Program-made: the position numbers and the translations under genes
The notes under the pieces: model-generated
Databases searched by the model: none
Told to the model about the DNA's origin: nothing
The model's input: the letters and a program-made list of their open reading frames with translations, nothing else
Shown: positions 35,244 to 40,713 of the stretch, in pieces
Layout of the letters: every line of letters starts with the position of its first letter
Numbering within the stretch: the stretch's first letter is position 1
Assembly (NCBI GenBank): GCA_019912545.1
Contig: JAIOIK010000147.1
Coordinates: 7,747-71,746 of the forward strand
Source of the DNA: Ignavibacteria bacterium
Lineage (GTDB): Bacteria; Bacteroidota; Ignavibacteria; Tepidaquicellales; OLB5
Reading direction: 5' to 3'
Length of the DNA: 64,000 bases

Positions 35244-35374
35244 GCTTAATTTTAATGAACTATGTTTTTAAATGCAATACCTATGAGAAGTGCTTTTTTA
35301 CGGGCATTATGCCTGCGGATTTACGTTGTTATAATAGCTATTATTTCATAATTTTGTTAAAAATCAGGAACAAA

Positions 35375-36214
35375 TTGAATTCAGAAATACTAATCAGAAC
35401 AGGCAGCAAAACCTTTAATCTTACCAACACAAAAAAACTATTTTTAATTGCAGGCCCCTGCGTAGTTGAATCAGAAAAACTTGCATTTGAAGTTGCTAAG
35501 AAACTTAAAGACATCACCTTACGTCTTAAAATGCCATTTATTTTTAAAGCATCATATAAAAAGGCAAACCGCACAAGCGGCTCTTCATTCCGCTCAATCG
35601 GCGTTACCGAAGCGCTTGATATACTTGGAAATATCAGGGAAAAATTGAATATTCCGGTAACAACTGACATTCATTCAGAAATTGAGGCAGAGATCGCATC
35701 CGAATATGTTGATATTCTGCAGATACCGGCATTTTTGTGCAGGCAGACTGAGCTTCTTGAAGCAGCAGCAGCAACCGGAAAAATTGTCAATATAAAAAAA
35801 GGGCAGTTCCTTTCCCCGGAAGATATGGTGCATCAGATCAATAAAGTAAAAGCAGCGGGCAATAACCGGATAATGGTCACAGAGCGCGGAGCTACATTTG
35901 GCTATCAAAACCTTGTTGTTGATATGAGGTCACTTGAGATAATGAAAAAGCTTAAATGCCCTGTGATATTTGATGCAACGCATTCTGTACAGATGCCATC
36001 AAAAAATGACGGTGTAACGGGCGGAAATCCGGAGTTTATCGAACCGCTTTCACGCGCTGCGGCTGCAGTTGGCATCAACGGAATATTTATTGAAACACAT
36101 CCCAATCCGGCAAAGGCAATGAGTGATGCCGGCTCAATGCTTCAACTTAGCAAAATGGAACCCCTCCTTAAGCGCCTTATTAAAATTCATGACCTGGTTA
36201 AGAACCACATATAA
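35375..36214 (+). CDS. kdsA: 3-deoxy-8-phosphooctulonate synthase
   Basis: Colinear with E. coli KdsA (FKASYKKANRTS, LQIPAFLCRQTELL, NIKKGQFLSP, VTERG..FGYQNLVVDM, IFDATHS). I favour the TTG at 35375, after AGGA, giving 279 aa. The track start at 35255 adds 40 non-homologous residues. Confidence 0.9.
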   Translation: MNSEILIRTGSKTFNLTNTKKLFLIAGPCVVESEKLAFEVAKKLKDITLRLKMPFIFKASYKKANRTSGSSFRSIGVTEALDILGNIREKLNIPVTTDIHSEIEAEIASEYVDILQIPAFLCRQTELLEAAAATGKIVNIKKGQFLSPEDMVHQINKVKAAGNNRIMVTERGATFGYQNLVVDMRSLEIMKKLKCPVIFDATHSVQMPSKNDGVTGGNPEFIEPLSRAAAAVGINGIFIETHPNPAKAMSDAGSMLQLSKMEPLLKRLIKIHDLVKNHI

Positions 36215-36222
36215 TTAACTGA

Positions 36223-37614
36223 ATGTATAATAAGGTTACTCCCGAATTTATTTCAAAGCTTCAAAGCATCTGCGGAAATGAGCATGTTCTCTTTGATGCG
36301 GAATCCATTTCACTTCATTCCGTAGATGAGACCGAAGATCTTAATTTCCCGCCGGAGGTAATTGTAAAGCCCGGCACAGCGCAGGAGATCTCTGAAATAT
36401 TCAAATTGGCCAATGAGCATAAAGTACCTGTAACTCCGCGCGGCGGCGGTACGGGACTTTCAGGCGGCGCGCTGGCTATTTATGGCGGGGTGTGCCTATC
36501 TATGACGAGATTCAACAGGATAATTGAAATTGATGAGAAGAATTTCCAGGCAGTAGTTCAGCCGGGAGTTATCACACAGGTTTTCCAGGAAGAAGTTGAA
36601 AAGCTTGGATTATTCTACCCGCCGGATCCCGCTTCACGGGGTTCATGTCATCTTGGCGGAAATCTTGCAGAATGTTCAGGAGGACCTAGAGCAGTAAAAT
36701 ACGGCGTTACTAAAGACTATGTGCTCGGACTTGAAGCGGTTCTGCCAACAGGCGAGATAATCAACACTGGCGGAAGAGTACTCAAAAACGTTACAGGTTA
36801 CAACTTGACTCAATTAATAGTTGGAAGCGAAGGCACACTTGCTGTAATTACAAAAATCAATTTCAGGCTTATTCCGCTGCCTAAGCATAAAAAAGTGATC
36901 CTTGCAGCTTTTGGCAGGCTTGAAGATGCAACGGATGCCGTTGCAATGATTTTCCAAAGAGGAATAACACCCTCGGCTATTGAGTTTATGGAAAAAGCCG
37001 CAGTTGAAGCCGCAGAGAAAATGCAGGGTAAGAAATTCCCTAACAGCGATGCTGAAGCGCAGTTGTTCATAGAAGTGGACGGCAATTATCCTGAAATATT
37101 GGATAAAGATATTGAGCTTATTGCCGAAGTTGTTGAGGAGTTTAATGCATTGGATGTTCTCCTTGCCGAAGACGAGCAGAAAGTGCAGGATGTTTGGGCG
37201 CTTAGGCGTGGTATTGGCGAGGCAGTAAAATCAATTTCTGCTTATAAAGAAGAAGATACGGTTGTCCCCAGGGCTAATATGACAAAGCTCGTTAGAGGTG
37301 TAAAGGAAATATCTGCCAAACATGGTATTACAACAATTTGTTACGGCCACTCAGGAGACGGCAATATTCACGTTAACATATTAAAGGATAGGCTTGATGA
37401 TAAATCGTGGGAGGAAAATATTGATACAGCCATCAGGGAGATATTCCAATTGACCGTTTCACTTGGCGGAATGATCTCGGGGGAGCATGGCATTGGGTAT
37501 TCCCAAAAGCCATACTTACCCATAGCCATTGCAGAAGCGGAAATTGAGCTGATGAAGAGGATCAAAAGATCATTCGATCCGAATAATATTTTAAATCCGG
37601 GGAAGATATTTTGA
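36223..37614 (+). CDS. FAD-linked oxidase (GlcD/D-lactate dehydrogenase-like)
   Basis: FAD-binding PCMH-type domain (PVTPRGGGTGLSGGA) and a C-terminal FAD-oxidase_C block (GEHGIG...K..FDP..ILNPGK). Confidence 0.85.
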   Translation: MYNKVTPEFISKLQSICGNEHVLFDAESISLHSVDETEDLNFPPEVIVKPGTAQEISEIFKLANEHKVPVTPRGGGTGLSGGALAIYGGVCLSMTRFNRIIEIDEKNFQAVVQPGVITQVFQEEVEKLGLFYPPDPASRGSCHLGGNLAECSGGPRAVKYGVTKDYVLGLEAVLPTGEIINTGGRVLKNVTGYNLTQLIVGSEGTLAVITKINFRLIPLPKHKKVILAAFGRLEDATDAVAMIFQRGITPSAIEFMEKAAVEAAEKMQGKKFPNSDAEAQLFIEVDGNYPEILDKDIELIAEVVEEFNALDVLLAEDEQKVQDVWALRRGIGEAVKSISAYKEEDTVVPRANMTKLVRGVKEISAKHGITTICYGHSGDGNIHVNILKDRLDDKSWEENIDTAIREIFQLTVSLGGMISGEHGIGYSQKPYLPIAIAEAEIELMKRIKRSFDPNNILNPGKIF

Positions 37615-37668
37615 ATTTGAAGTAGATTTATAAGGATCAAGACCTTTGGCCGGCTCATTTGCACATAG

Positions 37669-38030
37669 AGAAGCAGAGCCGTAGTTAGAAGCAAAGTCAA
37701 AAGCAAAATCAAAACAAAAGACGACACAAAGGCTCAAAGACTCAAAGGCACAAAGAAAAGCAAAAGCAAAGTCGGAGTTAAAAGCAAAGTCAAAAGCAAA
37801 ATCAAAACAAAAGACGACACAAAGGCTCAAAGACTCAAAGGCACAAAGAAAAGCAGAAGCAAAGTCGGAGTTAGAAGCAAAGTCAAAAGCAAAATCAAAA
37901 CAAGAGACGACACAAAGGCTCAAAGACTCAAAGGCACAAAGAAAAGCAAAAGCAAAGTCGGAGTTAAAAGCAAAGTCAAAAGCAAAATCAAAACAAAAGA
38001 CGACACAAAGGCTCAAAGGCAGAAAGAAAA
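37669..38030 (+). repeat. 93-bp direct tandem repeat, about 3.9 copies, purine-rich and almost T-free on the + strand
   Basis: The landmark GCAAAGTCAAAAGCAAAATC recurs at 37691, 37784, 37877 and 37970 (period exactly 93). Copies differ by only a few substitutions. The last copy is truncated. Confidence 0.95.
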
Positions 38031-38076
38031 GTATGATCAAAGCAGAAGCACGCAAGGTATGGGAGACAAGTAAAAT

Positions 38077-38499
38077 TTGAAAATTATGATAAAATCGGAG
38101 ATAAATATACGGGTATTATACGCTCACACTGATAAGATGGGCATAATCAATAATGGCAGATACCTTGAGTATTTTGAAGCAGGAAGGAACACACTGCTCC
38201 GCGGAATAGGCTTTCCGTACACAGAGCTTGAAAAGCTGAATTACGGGCTACCGGTTATTGAGGCGCACGTTAATTATATCTCAACCGGTGCTTATGATGA
38301 TGTAGTTGTGATAAGGTCATTTCTAAAGGCATTACCTACAGTACGTGTGAAGATAGATTATGAACTGAGTGTAAACGAAAAGATCATTGCAACTGGTTAT
38401 ACAATTCATTCATTCATAAATTTAATTACATTGAAACCGGCCCGTCCGCCAAAGGAATTTGTTGAACTGGTTGGTCAAAAATTGGGACCAGAAGACTAA
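38077..38499 (+). CDS. Acyl-CoA thioesterase, 4HBT/YbgC-like hotdog fold
   Basis: IRVLYAHTDKMGIINNGRYLEYFEAGRNTLL matches the YbgC-type catalytic N-terminus. The start is TTG 38077 or ATG 38086. Confidence 0.8.
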   Translation: MKIMIKSEINIRVLYAHTDKMGIINNGRYLEYFEAGRNTLLRGIGFPYTELEKLNYGLPVIEAHVNYISTGAYDDVVVIRSFLKALPTVRVKIDYELSVNEKIIATGYTIHSFINLITLKPARPPKEFVELVGQKLGPED

Positions 38500-38714
38500 T
38501 GACTTCTGAAGAAATGTACAGCGGCCTTGTCTGCCCGGTCGGGAAACATCCCCTTAGTTTAGACGGCGGACATTTGGTTTGCGAAAACTGTGGAGCCTCT
38601 TTCCCAATAAATGACGGGATACCTGAACTGCTGATCGAAGACGCAAGGCTTCCGGAAGGCATAAACAGTATAGCAGATCTGAAATGTATGAAAGAAAAGA
38701 ATTCTAAAAAATGA
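38499..38714 (+). CDS. Trm112/YcaR-family small zinc-ribbon-like protein
   Basis: LVCPVGKHPL...LVCENCGASFPINDGIPELLIEDAR is the family signature. Confidence 0.75.
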   Translation: MTSEEMYSGLVCPVGKHPLSLDGGHLVCENCGASFPINDGIPELLIEDARLPEGINSIADLKCMKEKNSKK

Positions 38715-39592
38715 CACTGAAAGAATTTTACAAAATAAATGGCGGCAAGATAGATAAAGCTATAAAAGATGCTTTAAAGGAAGATCATATTAAAAGTGAT
38801 GCAACTACAAACCTTATGCTAAAAGGCAAAGCGGGAAACAGAAAAATTGGTGCAGCTCTGCTATGCAAAGAAGACTGCATTGTGGCAGGGATAGATGTTT
38901 TTAAAAGTGTTTTTCTTAAGATCGATCCGCATACCAGCTTTAGAACGTTTCATAAAGATGGCGACTGGATAAAAAAGGGAAGTAAAGTCCTTGCCCTTAG
39001 ATCTTCTTGCAGCACTTTGCTGAGGGGTGAGAGGACGGCGCTCAATTTCCTGCAGAGGATGTCCGGAATAGCAACTCTTACAAATTACTTCGTTAAAAGA
39101 CTGAAATATAAGGATGCAAAGTTACTTCATACCCGCAAGACCACTCCCAATTTCAGGATTTTTGAAGCTGCGGCTGTAAAGGCAGGGGGCGGTGATTTCC
39201 ACAGGCTTAGCCTTGCGTCATCAGTCATGATCAAGGATAATCACATACTTGCAGCGGGTTCAGTTGAAAAAGTCTTTGATATTCTCCGGAAGGAAAAAAT
39301 ATCACCAAAATTGAAACAAAAGTTCGAAATAGAAGTAAAAACCTTCAAAGAGCTTATTACAGTTGTAAAATGCGGCAAGGGACTGGTAAGGGTAGTTATG
39401 ATAGATAACTTCAAGCCGGTGGATATTAAGAGGGCCATAACGATTTTAAAAACAAACGGATTTCAGGTCGAAGTATCCGGAGGCATAAACAGGCAGAATT
39501 TCGATAGTTTTCAAAGAAAAGGAATTGATTTCTACTCAATCGGGATGCTGACCCATTCCAACAAATCATGCGATTTTTCCCTGGAATTTTAA
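38711..39592 (+). CDS. nadC: Nicotinate-nucleotide diphosphorylase (carboxylating)
   Basis: ERTALNFLQRMSGIAT, TRKTTP, HR.SL...MIKDNH and EVSGGI blocks. Confidence 0.9.
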   Translation: MTLKEFYKINGGKIDKAIKDALKEDHIKSDATTNLMLKGKAGNRKIGAALLCKEDCIVAGIDVFKSVFLKIDPHTSFRTFHKDGDWIKKGSKVLALRSSCSTLLRGERTALNFLQRMSGIATLTNYFVKRLKYKDAKLLHTRKTTPNFRIFEAAAVKAGGGDFHRLSLASSVMIKDNHILAAGSVEKVFDILRKEKISPKLKQKFEIEVKTFKELITVVKCGKGLVRVVMIDNFKPVDIKRAITILKTNGFQVEVSGGINRQNFDSFQRKGIDFYSIGMLTHSNKSCDFSLEF

Positions 39593-39726: not shown

Positions 39727-40266
39727 ATGTTAAACAACAACAACTTGAAGCTGGTTCTGGCTTTACTGGTTATGTTCGCAGTGGGCTATGTTTGCAGCTC
39801 TGATAAGGACAAAGATAAAAAGGAAGATAAGAAGGAAGACACGAAGAAAGAGGATACAAAGAAGGAAGATACTAAGAAAGAAGACAAAACTGATACCAAA
39901 GAAAATACATCCAGCGGCAGTGATGAAGCACAGCTCTATTTCTGTGAAGAATACACCGGCGGAAAAGAAGTAGGTAAATCTGATGAATTCATTATCGGGA
40001 AAAACGGCGGATATTTTACATGTATGATCAATTTAAAAGGCACCGGCAAAAAGATCGGCGTTGGCAAACTTGAGCTTAGAATTACAAAGCTTGATGGCGG
40101 CGAAAAGATCATTGCTACTGAAAAATTTGACGTCCAGCCTGATTGGGACTATATCTTCTTTGATAAATTCCATACATTTTACTCAGCAGGAAATTACAAA
40201 GTTACCGCTTTAAAACCTGACGGAACTCCGGTTGCATCAGGTGAAGTGAAAATCTCAATGAGGTAA
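39727..40266 (+). CDS. Lipoprotein with K/E/D-rich repeat linker and C-terminal YFCE domain (unknown function)
   Basis: Lipobox-like AVGYVCSS. The linker reads DKDKDKKEDKKEDTKKEDTKKEDTKKEDKTDTKE. The C-terminal ~115 aa are paralogous to the next ORF. Confidence 0.55.
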   Translation: MLNNNNLKLVLALLVMFAVGYVCSSDKDKDKKEDKKEDTKKEDTKKEDTKKEDKTDTKENTSSGSDEAQLYFCEEYTGGKEVGKSDEFIIGKNGGYFTCMINLKGTGKKIGVGKLELRITKLDGGEKIIATEKFDVQPDWDYIFFDKFHTFYSAGNYKVTALKPDGTPVASGEVKISMR

Positions 40267-40326: not shown

Positions 40327-40713
40327 ATGAAAAAACTATTAGCAATTACTTTCATCGCGCTGGCATTTTTGGTATTAAATGAGAAATCAAATTCACAGAC
40401 GCTGTACTTCTGCGAAGGTGTTACAAATGACGGTTACCCGCAGACAGAAAGCAGTGTATTCAATATAGGCAGTGACGGCGGATACGTTTACGTACTTGTA
40501 AGGCTGCCGTATGAAATAGCTTGCCGCTCAGTGAGATTTGAAGTTTACCGCAACGGCGAGTACGATAATACAATATATGTTGATACAGAAAAAAGCTGGG
40601 TATGGTTCTGGAAAAAGATCACATTCTATAATACTGGAAATTTTACTATTTATGCGTATGATTGTTTTGACTACATGCTGACATCAGGAAGCGTAAAGAT
40701 ACAATACAGGTAG
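40327..40713 (+). CDS. Secreted YFCE-domain protein, paralog of 39727 C-terminal domain
   Basis: Signal peptide. Shared blocks LYFCE, G(S/K)(D/N)GGY, F(Y)..GN(F/Y), SG.VKI..R. Confidence 0.55.
   Translation: MKKLLAITFIALAFLVLNEKSNSQTLYFCEGVTNDGYPQTESSVFNIGSDGGYVYVLVRLPYEIACRSVRFEVYRNGEYDNTIYVDTEKSWVWFWKKITFYNTGNFTIYAYDCFDYMLTSGSVKIQYR

Follow-up and report, generated by a model that had tools for sequence, protein, structure and literature searches.

What is the nearly T-free tandem repeat that fills the spacer between an oxidase and a thioesterase gene in the genome of this uncultured member of the Ignavibacteria, and does it serve the cell? In the stretch of 64,000 nucleotides analysed here (the window), we read it as a young, lineage-specific minisatellite in the untranslated spacer between the co-oriented glcD-like oxidase and ybgC-like thioesterase genes, derived from one arm of a decayed cassette (probability about 0.7). 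The features concerned are the following:

36223..37614, + strand, FAD-linked oxidase, GlcD-like, 463 aa (ORF list; PF01565 and PF02913 on an identical protein)
37591..38055, - strand, antisense ORF of 154 aa, F/C/L-rich, TTG start, judged to be no gene
37615..37670, + strand, unique 5' flank of 56 nt (from the sequence)
37671..38018, + strand, minisatellite, 93 bp x 3.7 (TRF, units in register, pairwise unit differences)
37671-37763, 37764-37856, 37857-37949 and, partial, 37950-38018, + strand, the array units (aligned in register)
37764..37812, + strand, A-rich hexamer block AAAAGC / AAAGTC / AAAATC / AAAAC, unit 2 as example (TRF periods 6 and 12)
37813..37848, + strand, octamer block GACGACACAAAGGCTCAAAGACTCAAAGGCACAAAG (GRCWCAAA x4), unit 2 as example (TRF periods 8 and 16)
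38019..38085, + strand, 3' flank of the array, holding a 15-codon ORF (translation)
38034-38080, + strand, the 15-codon ORF MIKAEARKVWETSKI, ending 5 nt before the thioesterase ATG
38086..38499, + strand, YbgC/4HBT-type acyl-CoA thioesterase, 137 aa (PF13279, PF03061; TIGR00051 E = 5e-18)
38499-38714, Trm112-like gene, overlapping the thioesterase and nadC genes
38711-39592, nadC, overlapping the Trm112-like gene

The initial annotation had described a 93-bp tandem repeat with few substitutions between its copies, and TRF returns exactly this: an array from 37671 to 38018 with a period of 93, 3.7 copies, 96% matches, 0% indels and a score of 647. Two unit-specific probes (20 and 27 nt) gave four matches each at 93-nt spacing and no others in the 64-kb window, while 0 of 100 shuffles gave any match. 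Between units 2 and 3 there are 3 differences, each of them A/G, among which are the AAAAGC/AGAAGC and CAAAAGAC/CAAGAGAC pairs already noticed. Unit 1 is divergent at its 5' edge, and unit 4, which is truncated, has one 8-mer missing. Head-to-tail copies of high identity, with a unit in the range of about 10 to 100 bp or more, characterize a minisatellite and are found here. The units are contiguous, without the unique spacers that lie between the short repeats of a CRISPR, as had been stated before. Base counts for 37669-38030 are A 198, G 72, C 65 and T 27, and the array is the T-poorest 350-nt stretch of the window (7.4% T on the + strand compared to a mean of 29.8%, sd 4.0).

No inverted repeats of at least 14 nt were detected between 37600 and 38100, and folding of the + strand RNA (z = +0.71) was no better than that of shuffles; the same applies to the other strand (+1.24). 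Rfam gave no match at gathering score in the whole window and only noise (E = 7.8) at E <= 10 on 37400-38300. A scan for promoters and terminators inside the array yielded nothing, in particular no promoter-terminator pair of its own; the sole nearby promoter candidate on the + strand (38063-38090) overlaps the thioesterase start codon.

Both flanking genes are what they had been taken for. The oxidase matches TIGR00387 (glcD) with E = 2e-134, which is below the curated cut-off, and ends with the TGA at 37612-37614; the thioesterase belongs to the 4HBT/YbgC type by its family matches. Gene callers place the thioesterase start on same-species contigs at the ATG at 38086, so that the array ends 56-68 nt before it and not about 47 nt as initially given. 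Oxidase and thioesterase lie on the same strand, and the order oxidase, thioesterase, Trm112, nadC is kept in relatives whose oxidase is 82-92% identical. Three relatives have oxidase and thioesterase directly adjoining or overlapping, and nothing like a terminator is predicted between the two genes here; for these reasons the array is probably located inside a polycistronic transcript, in line with the mRNA location proposed earlier.

The reading frames of the array can hardly be taken for a gene. Two + frames, 37669-38070 and 37685-38077, run open through it, as annotated without any ATG, GTG or TTG before the ATG at 38034, and stop codons separate both from the oxidase; the third + frame contains one TAA per unit. 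Open sense frames are to be expected here because T makes up only 7% of the array and every stop codon begins with T. The antisense ORF exists as described; it would lose 62 codons in the shorter variant of the array found in another assembly of the species (L004). Pfam searches with the antisense ORF and both open sense frames gave noise only, none of these ORFs is kept in any of the relatives examined, and the NCBI contig L004 has no called gene in this gap. Moreover, sister arrays in relatives have periods of 118, 169 and 212, none divisible by three. A repeat coding for a Lys-rich sense protein (KSKAKSK...) or for the antisense F/C/L-rich peptide, as might be suggested by the open sense frames, the period of 31 codons and the antisense TTG start, is therefore highly improbable, and the earlier judgement that a coding explanation is weak stands. 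Three further coding candidates were rejected. The 15-codon ORF is not a conserved leader peptide, being absent from L007, L008 and L010. Read-through or frameshifting from the oxidase into the array would meet three in-frame stops (the oxidase TGA and two more) or, in the other open frame, two. An N-terminal extension of the thioesterase is blocked by the in-frame TAA at 38071-38073 and has no start codon.

Other assemblies of the same species carry the array, too. The MAG contig L004 (GCA_020851695.1, NadC protein identical) contains 1.7 copies compared to 3.7 in the window; its gap measures 285 nt instead of 471 nt, a difference of exactly 2 x 93. The 5' flank 37615..37670 is identical in the same-species contigs L001, L002 and L004 except for one SNP in L004. 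The copy number may differ between strains, but the 1.7-copy form could also be a collapse in short-read assembly. With respect to the proposed copy-number-variable regulator, the variable copy number is thus consistent with the data (1.7 versus 3.7), whereas a role as regulator found no support. Conversely, tandem copies produced by mis-assembly would be in keeping with the error-proneness of tandem repeats in metagenome assemblies and with the single contig holding 1.7 copies. Two same-species Logan assemblies from independent samples, however, break inside the array, from both sides, at an A/G variant site. As this site differs between copies, at least two distinct copies are present in those samples; the copies in the window, moreover, bear distinct substitutions. 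We consider an artefact very unlikely.

A search for the repeat in related genomes had been suggested; the 93-bp array is absent from every relative examined among those with an oxidase 82-92% identical. Instead, the same site is occupied in very different ways. In L099, L101 and L102 (82-84%) oxidase and thioesterase adjoin each other, with 0-20 nt between the two genes. L008 (92%) and L007 (91%) exhibit a single related T-poor stretch (...CAAAACCAAAGACGAC...). In L007, L191, L192 and L194 a gene of the PF13366/TIGR04256 family (GxxExxY, PD-(D/E)XK) lies between oxidase and thioesterase; the encoded proteins are 69-100% identical and lie on the same contigs as the oxidase orthologues. In L007, L191 and L192 inverted repeats of 18-22 nt (CACAGAG/CTCTGTG; CACCACAGAGGACACAGAG ... 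CTCTGTGGTG) enclose this cassette gene, their arms being 83-94% complementary. L194 has no pairing partner for the left arm directly after the cassette gene; there, right arms with which the left arm (838-881) can pair occur only within a downstream array of mini-hairpins. L100 contains a second GxxExxY-like ORF, recognized by inspection of the sequence, with different inverted repeats. Gene-less derivatives with a core of about 87 nt between 18-28 nt inverted repeats also occur in relatives, and L185 has one gene-less hairpin copy in another spacer of this operon. Together, cassettes and gene-less copies form a pattern that fits a mobile family.

Decay and amplification are visible at this site as well. 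In L008 the 3' end of the cassette gene is still clearly recognizable as a remnant, together with the right inverted repeat. When the 3' flank of the array (38019..38085) was aligned with the gene remnant of L008 and L007, the alignment was convincing for L008 and weak for the window; in this flank, the 3' end of a lost cassette gene may survive as a degraded trace. Tandem arrays have arisen in other lineages: L194 has 169 bp x 3.0 of gene-less hairpin units, and L187 has two arrays (212 bp x 2.0 and 118 bp x 2.1), while in L188, whose oxidase protein is identical to that of L187, the gap is 330 nt shorter. These arrays of relatives (118, 169 and 212 bp units) are made of the same blocks. The Logan contigs L186, L190, L195 and L196 end within the gaps at this site.

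How the unit of the window relates to the cassette can be followed block by block. A 24-nt segment of unit 1 (37684-37707) has an exact reverse-complement match in L009-L011, and alignment of the hexamer block to the minus strand of the L010, L187 and L189 gaps gave z = 6.2-7.9 in local alignment, a score attained by 0 of 200 shuffles. The hexamer block thus lies on the opposite strand in the 86-87% relatives; consequently the A-rich RNA is not conserved and would be U-rich in the mRNA of those organisms. On the + strand, the unit aligned to L008, L007 and L194 with z = 2.7-3.3 (1-5 of 200 shuffles reached the score). The octamer block resembles CACAGAGGRCACAGAG, the left inverted repeat of the GxxExxY cassette in relatives, and the blocks follow in the same order in L194 and L007 (AAAATCAAAA...CCACAGAGGACACAGAG). 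Judged from position, block order and a modest alignment score, a link between the CACAAAG octamers and the CACAGAG inverted repeat is plausible. The cassette itself is missing: the terminal inverted repeats CACCACAGAGG ... CCTCTGTGGTG are not present around the array, CACAGAGNNCACAGAG does not occur near it within 3 mismatches, and tblastn of the L007 cassette protein against the window (E <= 10) gave no match; neither a PF13366 ORF nor the core was found there.

We propose the following course of events. In this clade the spacer is a hot spot in which a small GxxExxY (PF13366) gene bounded by inverted repeats settled, as did gene-less hairpin derivatives, other palindromic elements and simple repeats. 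Their decay and tandem amplification took place repeatedly, in different lineages. The lineage of the window would have lost the cassette gene and the right, T/G-rich arm, and retained only sequence of the left-arm type, i.e. the A-rich hexamer block and the CACAAAG octamer block. The presence of one arm only would explain why the + strand is almost free of T and why its RNA is unable to fold. Replication slippage or unequal recombination between short internal direct repeats may then have duplicated a 93-bp piece head-to-tail. The result would be an unstructured, A-rich, untranslated spacer in a probable polycistronic mRNA that changes its size in 93-nt steps, with a neutral or mild effect on the downstream genes; neutrality is here our default assumption.

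Several known systems resemble this array in part. The MIRU-VNTR loci of mycobacteria consist of tandem units of 40-100 bp in operon-internal spacers and are co-transcribed with the flanking genes; relatives lack MIRUs at the homologous site, and the units share some traits with MITEs and differ in number from strain to strain (PMC3184786, PMC12548453). The likeness is a loose one, based on tandem 93-bp units in a spacer between genes that are probably co-transcribed. MIRUs, however, are dispersed at about 40-50 loci per genome and their short ORFs overlap the stop and start codons of the neighbours, whereas the array occurs at one locus only (64 kb searched), its unit has no start codon and stop codons separate it from both genes.

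Hairpin-bounded ORF cassettes, such as 23S rRNA intervening sequences, and MITE-like gene-less derivatives form another group. The spacer of the relatives, with a PF13366 ORF or an approximately 87-nt core between 18-28 nt inverted repeats, may be likened to these in its sequence features. In contrast, the array of the window is one-armed, without ORF or inverted repeat, and would be a derivative and not such an element itself. The literature on GxxExxY, PDDEXK_3, Ignavibacteria tandem repeats or Hfq yielded no account of these cassettes or of the 93-bp repeat.

The hexamer vocabulary is shared with (AAAAGC/AAAGTC)n microsatellites that lie beside GC hairpins in Magnetococcales and other phyla, where tract lengths vary from 20 to 236 nt. 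Positions 37689-37715 of the window are identical over 27 nt to a Magnetococcales locus (L031), which may be convergence in a low-complexity vocabulary. Unlike the array, elements of the Magnetococcales type occur by the dozen, scattered over each genome, and finish with a terminator-like hairpin and a T-run, and they have neither a 93-bp higher-order unit nor the CACAAAG block. Among GTDB representative genomes a hexamer 20-mer was found at only one Ignavibacteria locus, L047, at the same site; in viral contigs it gave 6 scattered matches, and the unit-specific 20-mer gave 0. A general pairing of A-rich hexamer arrays in other phyla with GxxExxY genes was rejected, since a tblastn search of all fetched loci with the L007 protein gave no match and the ORFs near those arrays are unrelated genes.

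A functional role of the array would most readily be sought at the RNA level. The initial annotation had proposed a platform for Hfq or S1, and one may think of an A-rich module in the operon mRNA or the 5' UTR of the thioesterase that binds S1, Hfq or another protein and tunes translation or stability by its copy number. CrcZ-type sRNAs are A-rich RNAs that sequester proteins by (ARN)n sites for the distal face of Hfq, and the array is likewise A-rich, unstructured and rich in ARN triplets. In the best frame their fraction is 0.54 compared to 0.43 in composition shuffles (0 of 1000 reach this value), i.e. 54% of the triplets. The longest ARN run of 6, however, equals the expectation from composition (shuffle mean 5.9, reached by 55% of the shuffles), and the array differs from CrcZ in having no promoter or terminator of its own, no conserved orientation and no Rfam match. 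A contribution to translation could be imagined, too. In Bacteroidetes, initiation relies on upstream sequence that is A-rich and little structured (PMC6847099, PMC3155529). Shine-Dalgarno motifs are rare in this genome (6 of 42 upstream regions compared to 10% background), as in Bacteroidetes, and appear to be little used by the organism, so that an A-rich unstructured leader could aid translation of the thioesterase; a copy number that may vary between strains would suit such tuning. Against all this, a single related stretch is the most that the closest relatives show, the genes abut in three, and the hexamer block is inverted in others. We therefore regard a functional A-rich module of this kind as unlikely, and the Hfq/S1 proposal is not borne out. 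CsrA-type GGA sites were dismissed by inspection, as there is one GGA per unit and it lies outside hairpin loops.

Somewhat less likely still is an effect on polarity, in which the spacer of about 470 nt would serve as an entry site for Rho by its regular TC dinucleotides and each unit would lower downstream transcription. It is untranslated and unstructured, each unit contains about 5 TC dinucleotides, and no intrinsic terminator is predicted, but C does not exceed G (65 versus 72) as it would in typical rut sites, and conservation is lacking. At the DNA level, four near-identical units might be iteron-like sites, act as a promoter or UP-like element, or bind a nucleoid protein, and each unit carries on its minus strand a TTGACT resembling a -35 hexamer. 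Yet there is no promoter-like hexamer pair inside the array, relatives do not possess it, and nothing in the surrounding genes points to replication or partition functions; this seems improbable to us. The minisatellite derived from a decayed cassette arm accounts for these observations best.

A broader possibility, which we put forward tentatively, is that Ignavibacteria harbour a family of selfish elements which has apparently not been described, and that the array is what remains of one of them, reduced to a single arm. This family would comprise hairpin-bounded mini-cassettes with a GxxExxY PD-(D/E)XK nuclease and gene-less MITE-like derivatives, would colonise operon spacers in the way intervening sequences do in rRNA, and would have purine-rich and pyrimidine-rich arms that readily expand into minisatellites. 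Conceivably, the A-rich arm might even act as a structure-free leader whose copy number tunes downstream translation in an organism with little use for Shine-Dalgarno sites.

As a regulatory element the array probably matters little, being a local, recent and presumably neutral minisatellite. It accounts for the breaks that short-read assemblies of this species show here, and strains of this Ignavibacteria population could be typed with it as a VNTR marker. Of more interest than these uses is the hot spot it marks, a spacer in a conserved operon in which GxxExxY nuclease cassettes and hairpin derivatives repeatedly insert, decay and amplify. GxxExxY/PF13366 proteins are very widespread, with their function listed as unknown (PMC3424549). 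The well-resolved series found at this one orthologous site, which comprises the empty spacer, the spacer with the gene, its remnant, the hairpin without a gene and finally the tandem array, offers a good starting point for studying the movement of such cassettes and the role of their inverted repeats.

One strong tandem array, as claimed in the initial annotation, occupies the spacer between an upstream gene for a GlcD-like FAD oxidase and a downstream gene for a YbgC/4HBT thioesterase, both of which had been named correctly. It extends from 37671 to 38018 with a period of 93, 3.7 copies and a score of 647, the copies showing 96% matches and no indels (Tandem Repeats Finder). Two unit-specific probes each gave exactly 4 matches at 93-nt spacing and none elsewhere in the 64-kb window, and shuffled sequences gave 0 matches to either probe. 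Aligned in register, units 2 and 3 are distinguished by 3 positions, all of them A/G, while unit 1 is divergent at its 5' edge and unit 4 is truncated, with one 8-mer missing. Nested in the unit are smaller repeats, namely 6- and 12-mers (AAGCAA, AAGCAAAGTCAA) and 8- and 16-mers (GACACAAA), likewise reported by Tandem Repeats Finder; the A-rich 6-mer part is referred to here as the hexamer block and the CACAAAG-type 8-mer part as the octamer block. The description of the plus strand as nearly T-free was borne out, too: 37669-38030 contains 27 T in 362 nt, and this content of 7.4% is the lowest of any 350-nt stretch in the window (mean 29.8%, sd 4.0). Downstream of the thioesterase gene, the window continues with overlapping Trm112-like and nadC genes.

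Window homologues bearing names were assigned to uncultured Ignavibacteria bacterium. Contigs with an identical oxidase from two Logan assemblies terminate about 100 nt past the gene, within unit 1, both at an A-or-G site differing between the copies, and contigs with an identical nadC begin within the last array unit. Such breaks from both sides are what a real multi-copy repeat causes in short-read assemblies. The site is crossed by L004, an NCBI MAG contig of the same species (GCA_020851695.1), which carries 1.7 copies; its spacer gap measures 285 nt, exactly two units less than the 471 nt of the window. The suggested copy-number polymorphism may thus be represented by 1.7 versus 3.7 copies, the shorter form being a genuine allele or else the result of an assembly collapse.

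As stated previously, two plus-strand frames are open across the array and lack start codons, and the antisense ORF of 154 aa is present. In the open frames the first start to appear is the ATG at 38034; the third frame has one stop per unit. We agree that a coding role is weak, because no frame is conserved in relatives and no frame has a Pfam match. Open sense frames are expected where the DNA lacks T, and the periods of sister arrays are not multiples of three, so that the 31-codon period is a coincidence. The units are contiguous without spacers, which upholds the exclusion of CRISPR. Furthermore, no Rfam family was found at the array, and a scan detected no promoter-like or terminator-like site within it.

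The order oxidase, thioesterase, Trm112, nadC is kept in relatives with 82-92% identical oxidase (percentages after contig names give this protein identity), and the oxidase/thioesterase spacer is highly variable among them; the 93-bp array itself is absent. In L099, L101 and L102 (82-84%) oxidase and thioesterase abut or overlap, suggesting that a tight operon is the ground state. Other relatives carry a cassette, i.e. a GxxExxY (PD-(D/E)XK) gene bounded by inverted repeats, or microsatellites:

Cassettes and microsatellites in relatives
L007:4413-4951, cassette with a 123-129 aa GxxExxY / PD-(D/E)XK gene
L191:876-1305, cassette with a 123-129 aa GxxExxY / PD-(D/E)XK gene
L192:877-1302, cassette with a 123-129 aa GxxExxY / PD-(D/E)XK gene
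L194:838-1290, cassette with a 123-129 aa GxxExxY gene, a left arm without partner directly after the gene
L100:1551-2030, putative second cassette type, GxxExxY-like by sequence look
L107:1669-1724, (AATAATG)n microsatellite directly after the oxidase stop
L107:1933-1986, (ACTTTTA)n microsatellite directly before the thioesterase start

The GxxExxY gene lies between oxidase and thioesterase in L007 (91%), L191 (86%), L192 (83%) and L194 (87%). Its products match PF13366 (E = 3e-38) and TIGR04256 (E = 1e-40) and are mutual closest homologues with 69-100% identity. In the first three contigs the arms (left CACCACAGAGGACACAGAG, right CTCTGTG..CTCTGTGGTG) are 18-22 nt long, 83-94% complementary and composed of tandem CACAGAG-type 7-8-mers. 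The left arm of L194 pairs only with right arms in a downstream array of gene-less mini-hairpins (L194:1309-1813, 169 bp x 3.0, AAAATCAAAAGCATAAA before each unit). A single gene-less hairpin of the cassette family is located in a different spacer of the operon, between thioesterase and Trm112, in L185 (3585-3720); in both contigs these hairpins have arms of 27-28 nt around a core of about 87 nt. The cassette layout resembles a selfish element inserting into operon spacers, and the occurrence of gene-less hairpins in the L194 array and in a second spacer in L185 suggests MITE-like mobility. L100 (84%) has an apparently different GxxExxY-like gene with 46-nt CGCTGAT/GCAGAT-type inverted repeats, again by sequence look. 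We found no published description of these cassettes or of the 93-bp repeat.

The closest relative, L008 (92%), has lost the cassette gene and kept an unmistakable 3'-end remnant together with the right inverted repeat. The L098 spacer holds a GC-rich palindromic element, and in L107 (69%) a GC hairpin separates the two heptamer microsatellites. Several relatives have tandem arrays assembled from the same blocks as that of the window. The spacer of L187 (2886-3436) contains its own arrays (212 bp x 2.0 and 118 bp x 2.1); that of L188 (2893-3138), with an identical oxidase protein (P0021), is 330 nt shorter, which may be a second within-species copy-number difference at this site or an assembly collapse. 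The Logan contigs L186, L190, L195 and L196 also end within spacers holding tandem arrays. Just past the beginning of the spacer element, L186 closes with AGATCGGAAGAGCGTCGTGTAGG (2934-2956), which we take to be Illumina adapter sequence, so that this contig end is artefactual rather than genomic.

Strong matches to the hexamer block lie in the gaps of L010, L187 and L189, on the minus strand of these contigs (24-nt exact reverse-complement match; local-alignment z 6.2-7.9, the score being reached by 0/200 shuffles). The central stretch of the unit, ATCAAAACAAAAGACGAC, aligns with a single-copy plus-strand stretch in L007 and L008. The octamer block GGCTCAAAGACTCAAAGGCACAAAG occupies the position of the relatives' CACAGAG-type left inverted repeat, and the order of the blocks is that of L194 and L007; the statistical support is only moderate (z = 2.7-3.3). 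Hexamers flank the inverted repeats of the relatives on the outside, A-rich ones next to the left repeat and T-rich ones next to the right. A search of 37600-38100 in the window gave no inverted repeat of at least 14 nt, and tblastn gave no trace of the cassette protein in the window. In the simplest reading, the window kept and amplified only left-arm material and the relatives with 86-87% identity mostly right-arm material. This would explain why T is nearly lacking, why the identity with relatives is to their reverse complement, and why the array does not fold (RNA folding z = +0.71 on the plus and +1.24 on the minus strand).

We therefore regard the array, with a probability of about 0.7, as a minisatellite formed by slippage or recombination in an insertion-prone operon spacer, its source being one arm of a GxxExxY hairpin cassette that has decayed. 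After decay of the cassette one arm would have been left in the spacer, a 93-bp left-arm piece would have been amplified, and the probably co-transcribed array would shift in length by 93-nt steps, probably with neutral effect. The closest analogue is a mycobacterial MIRU-VNTR locus: these have units of 40-100 bp in operon spacers, are co-transcribed, vary in copy number, are missing at homologous sites of relatives and are somewhat MITE-like (PMC3184786, PMC12548453). However, MIRUs are dispersed at many loci and their unit ORF is coupled to the flanking genes. Within the 64-kb window, the array shows neither of these two defining features and is accordingly classed as a plain minisatellite. 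Its identification as a hairpin cassette or MITE in its own right was rejected, there being no inverted repeat and no ORF.

The regulatory RNA suggested initially, a platform of the Hfq/S1 type, is not supported, since the A-rich strand is not conserved in relatives and no Rfam family applies. At most 6 ARN triplets follow one another without interruption, and composition-matched shuffles give a mean longest run of 5.9; in the best frame, the share of ARN triplets is somewhat elevated (0.54 versus 0.43). The lack of conservation of the A-rich strand among relatives is more telling against Hfq than these counts. A dedicated function is not supported, nothing having been found in its favour. A milder role is conceivable, as the array might serve as an A-rich unstructured leader aiding thioesterase translation. 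In Bacteroidetes, SD motifs are rare and translation initiation depends on upstream sequence that is A-rich and little structured (PMC6847099, PMC3155529). Our organism looks similarly SD-poor, with SD-like motifs in 6 of 42 regions upstream of long ORFs in the window, hardly more than a 10% background (starts crudely set at the first ATG). Because such initiation uses A-rich, low-structure sequence, the array is compatible with efficient thioesterase translation. Rho-dependent polarity could also act at this long, untranslated and unstructured spacer, but C does not exceed G in the array.

Some further observations were made on related sequences and on the window. GTDB representative genomes contain the 20-mer AAGCAAAGTCAAAAGCAAAA in 86 stretches (loci L013-L091), many of them non-coding (AAAAGC/AAAGTC/AAAATC)n tracts of 20-236 nt with a GC hairpin immediately after (e.g. 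L090:906-1200, L064:1600-1900, L031:6440-6480); (AAAAGC)n is a perfect ARN repeat. Magnetococcales have dozens of such tracts per genome, with a terminator-like hairpin and T-run, and one of their loci shares 27 identical nt with the window. Others were found in Acidobacteriota, a Poriferihabitaceae MAG, KSB1 (adjoining CAGAG repeats) and Stenotrophomonas (L068, without GC hairpin). The window also has a tandem repeat within coding sequence (39812-39884, ORF 39727-40266; periods 12 and 15), which specifies KDKDKKEDKKEDTKKEDTKKEDTKKEDK close to the N-terminus of a protein of 179 aa whose start resembles a signal peptide. This protein shares an LYFCE(E/G) motif with the product of the next gene (ORF 40327-40713, 128 aa); both genes keep their position in relatives, and neither protein has a Pfam or NCBIfam family. 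The KDO8P-synthase (DAHP_synth_1) ORF at 35255-36214 gives 319 aa from the first ATG, as in the same-species contigs L001 and L002, while most orthologues of relatives are called at 279-297 aa; translation may in fact begin downstream of 35255. The opening codons of the thioesterase gene (ATGATAAAATC..., 38086-38103) have a degenerate copy, ATGATCAAAGC..., 52 nt upstream at 38034-38051, and the thioesterase start of L008 (2902-2918) has one, ATGATAAAATG..., 34 nt upstream (2868-2884). These copies may reflect an insertion-target duplication at the gene start, or chance.

The context of this spacer is of more interest than the array itself, as a single orthologous site presents the full series of states: empty, gene-bearing cassette, remnant, gene-less hairpin and tandem array.
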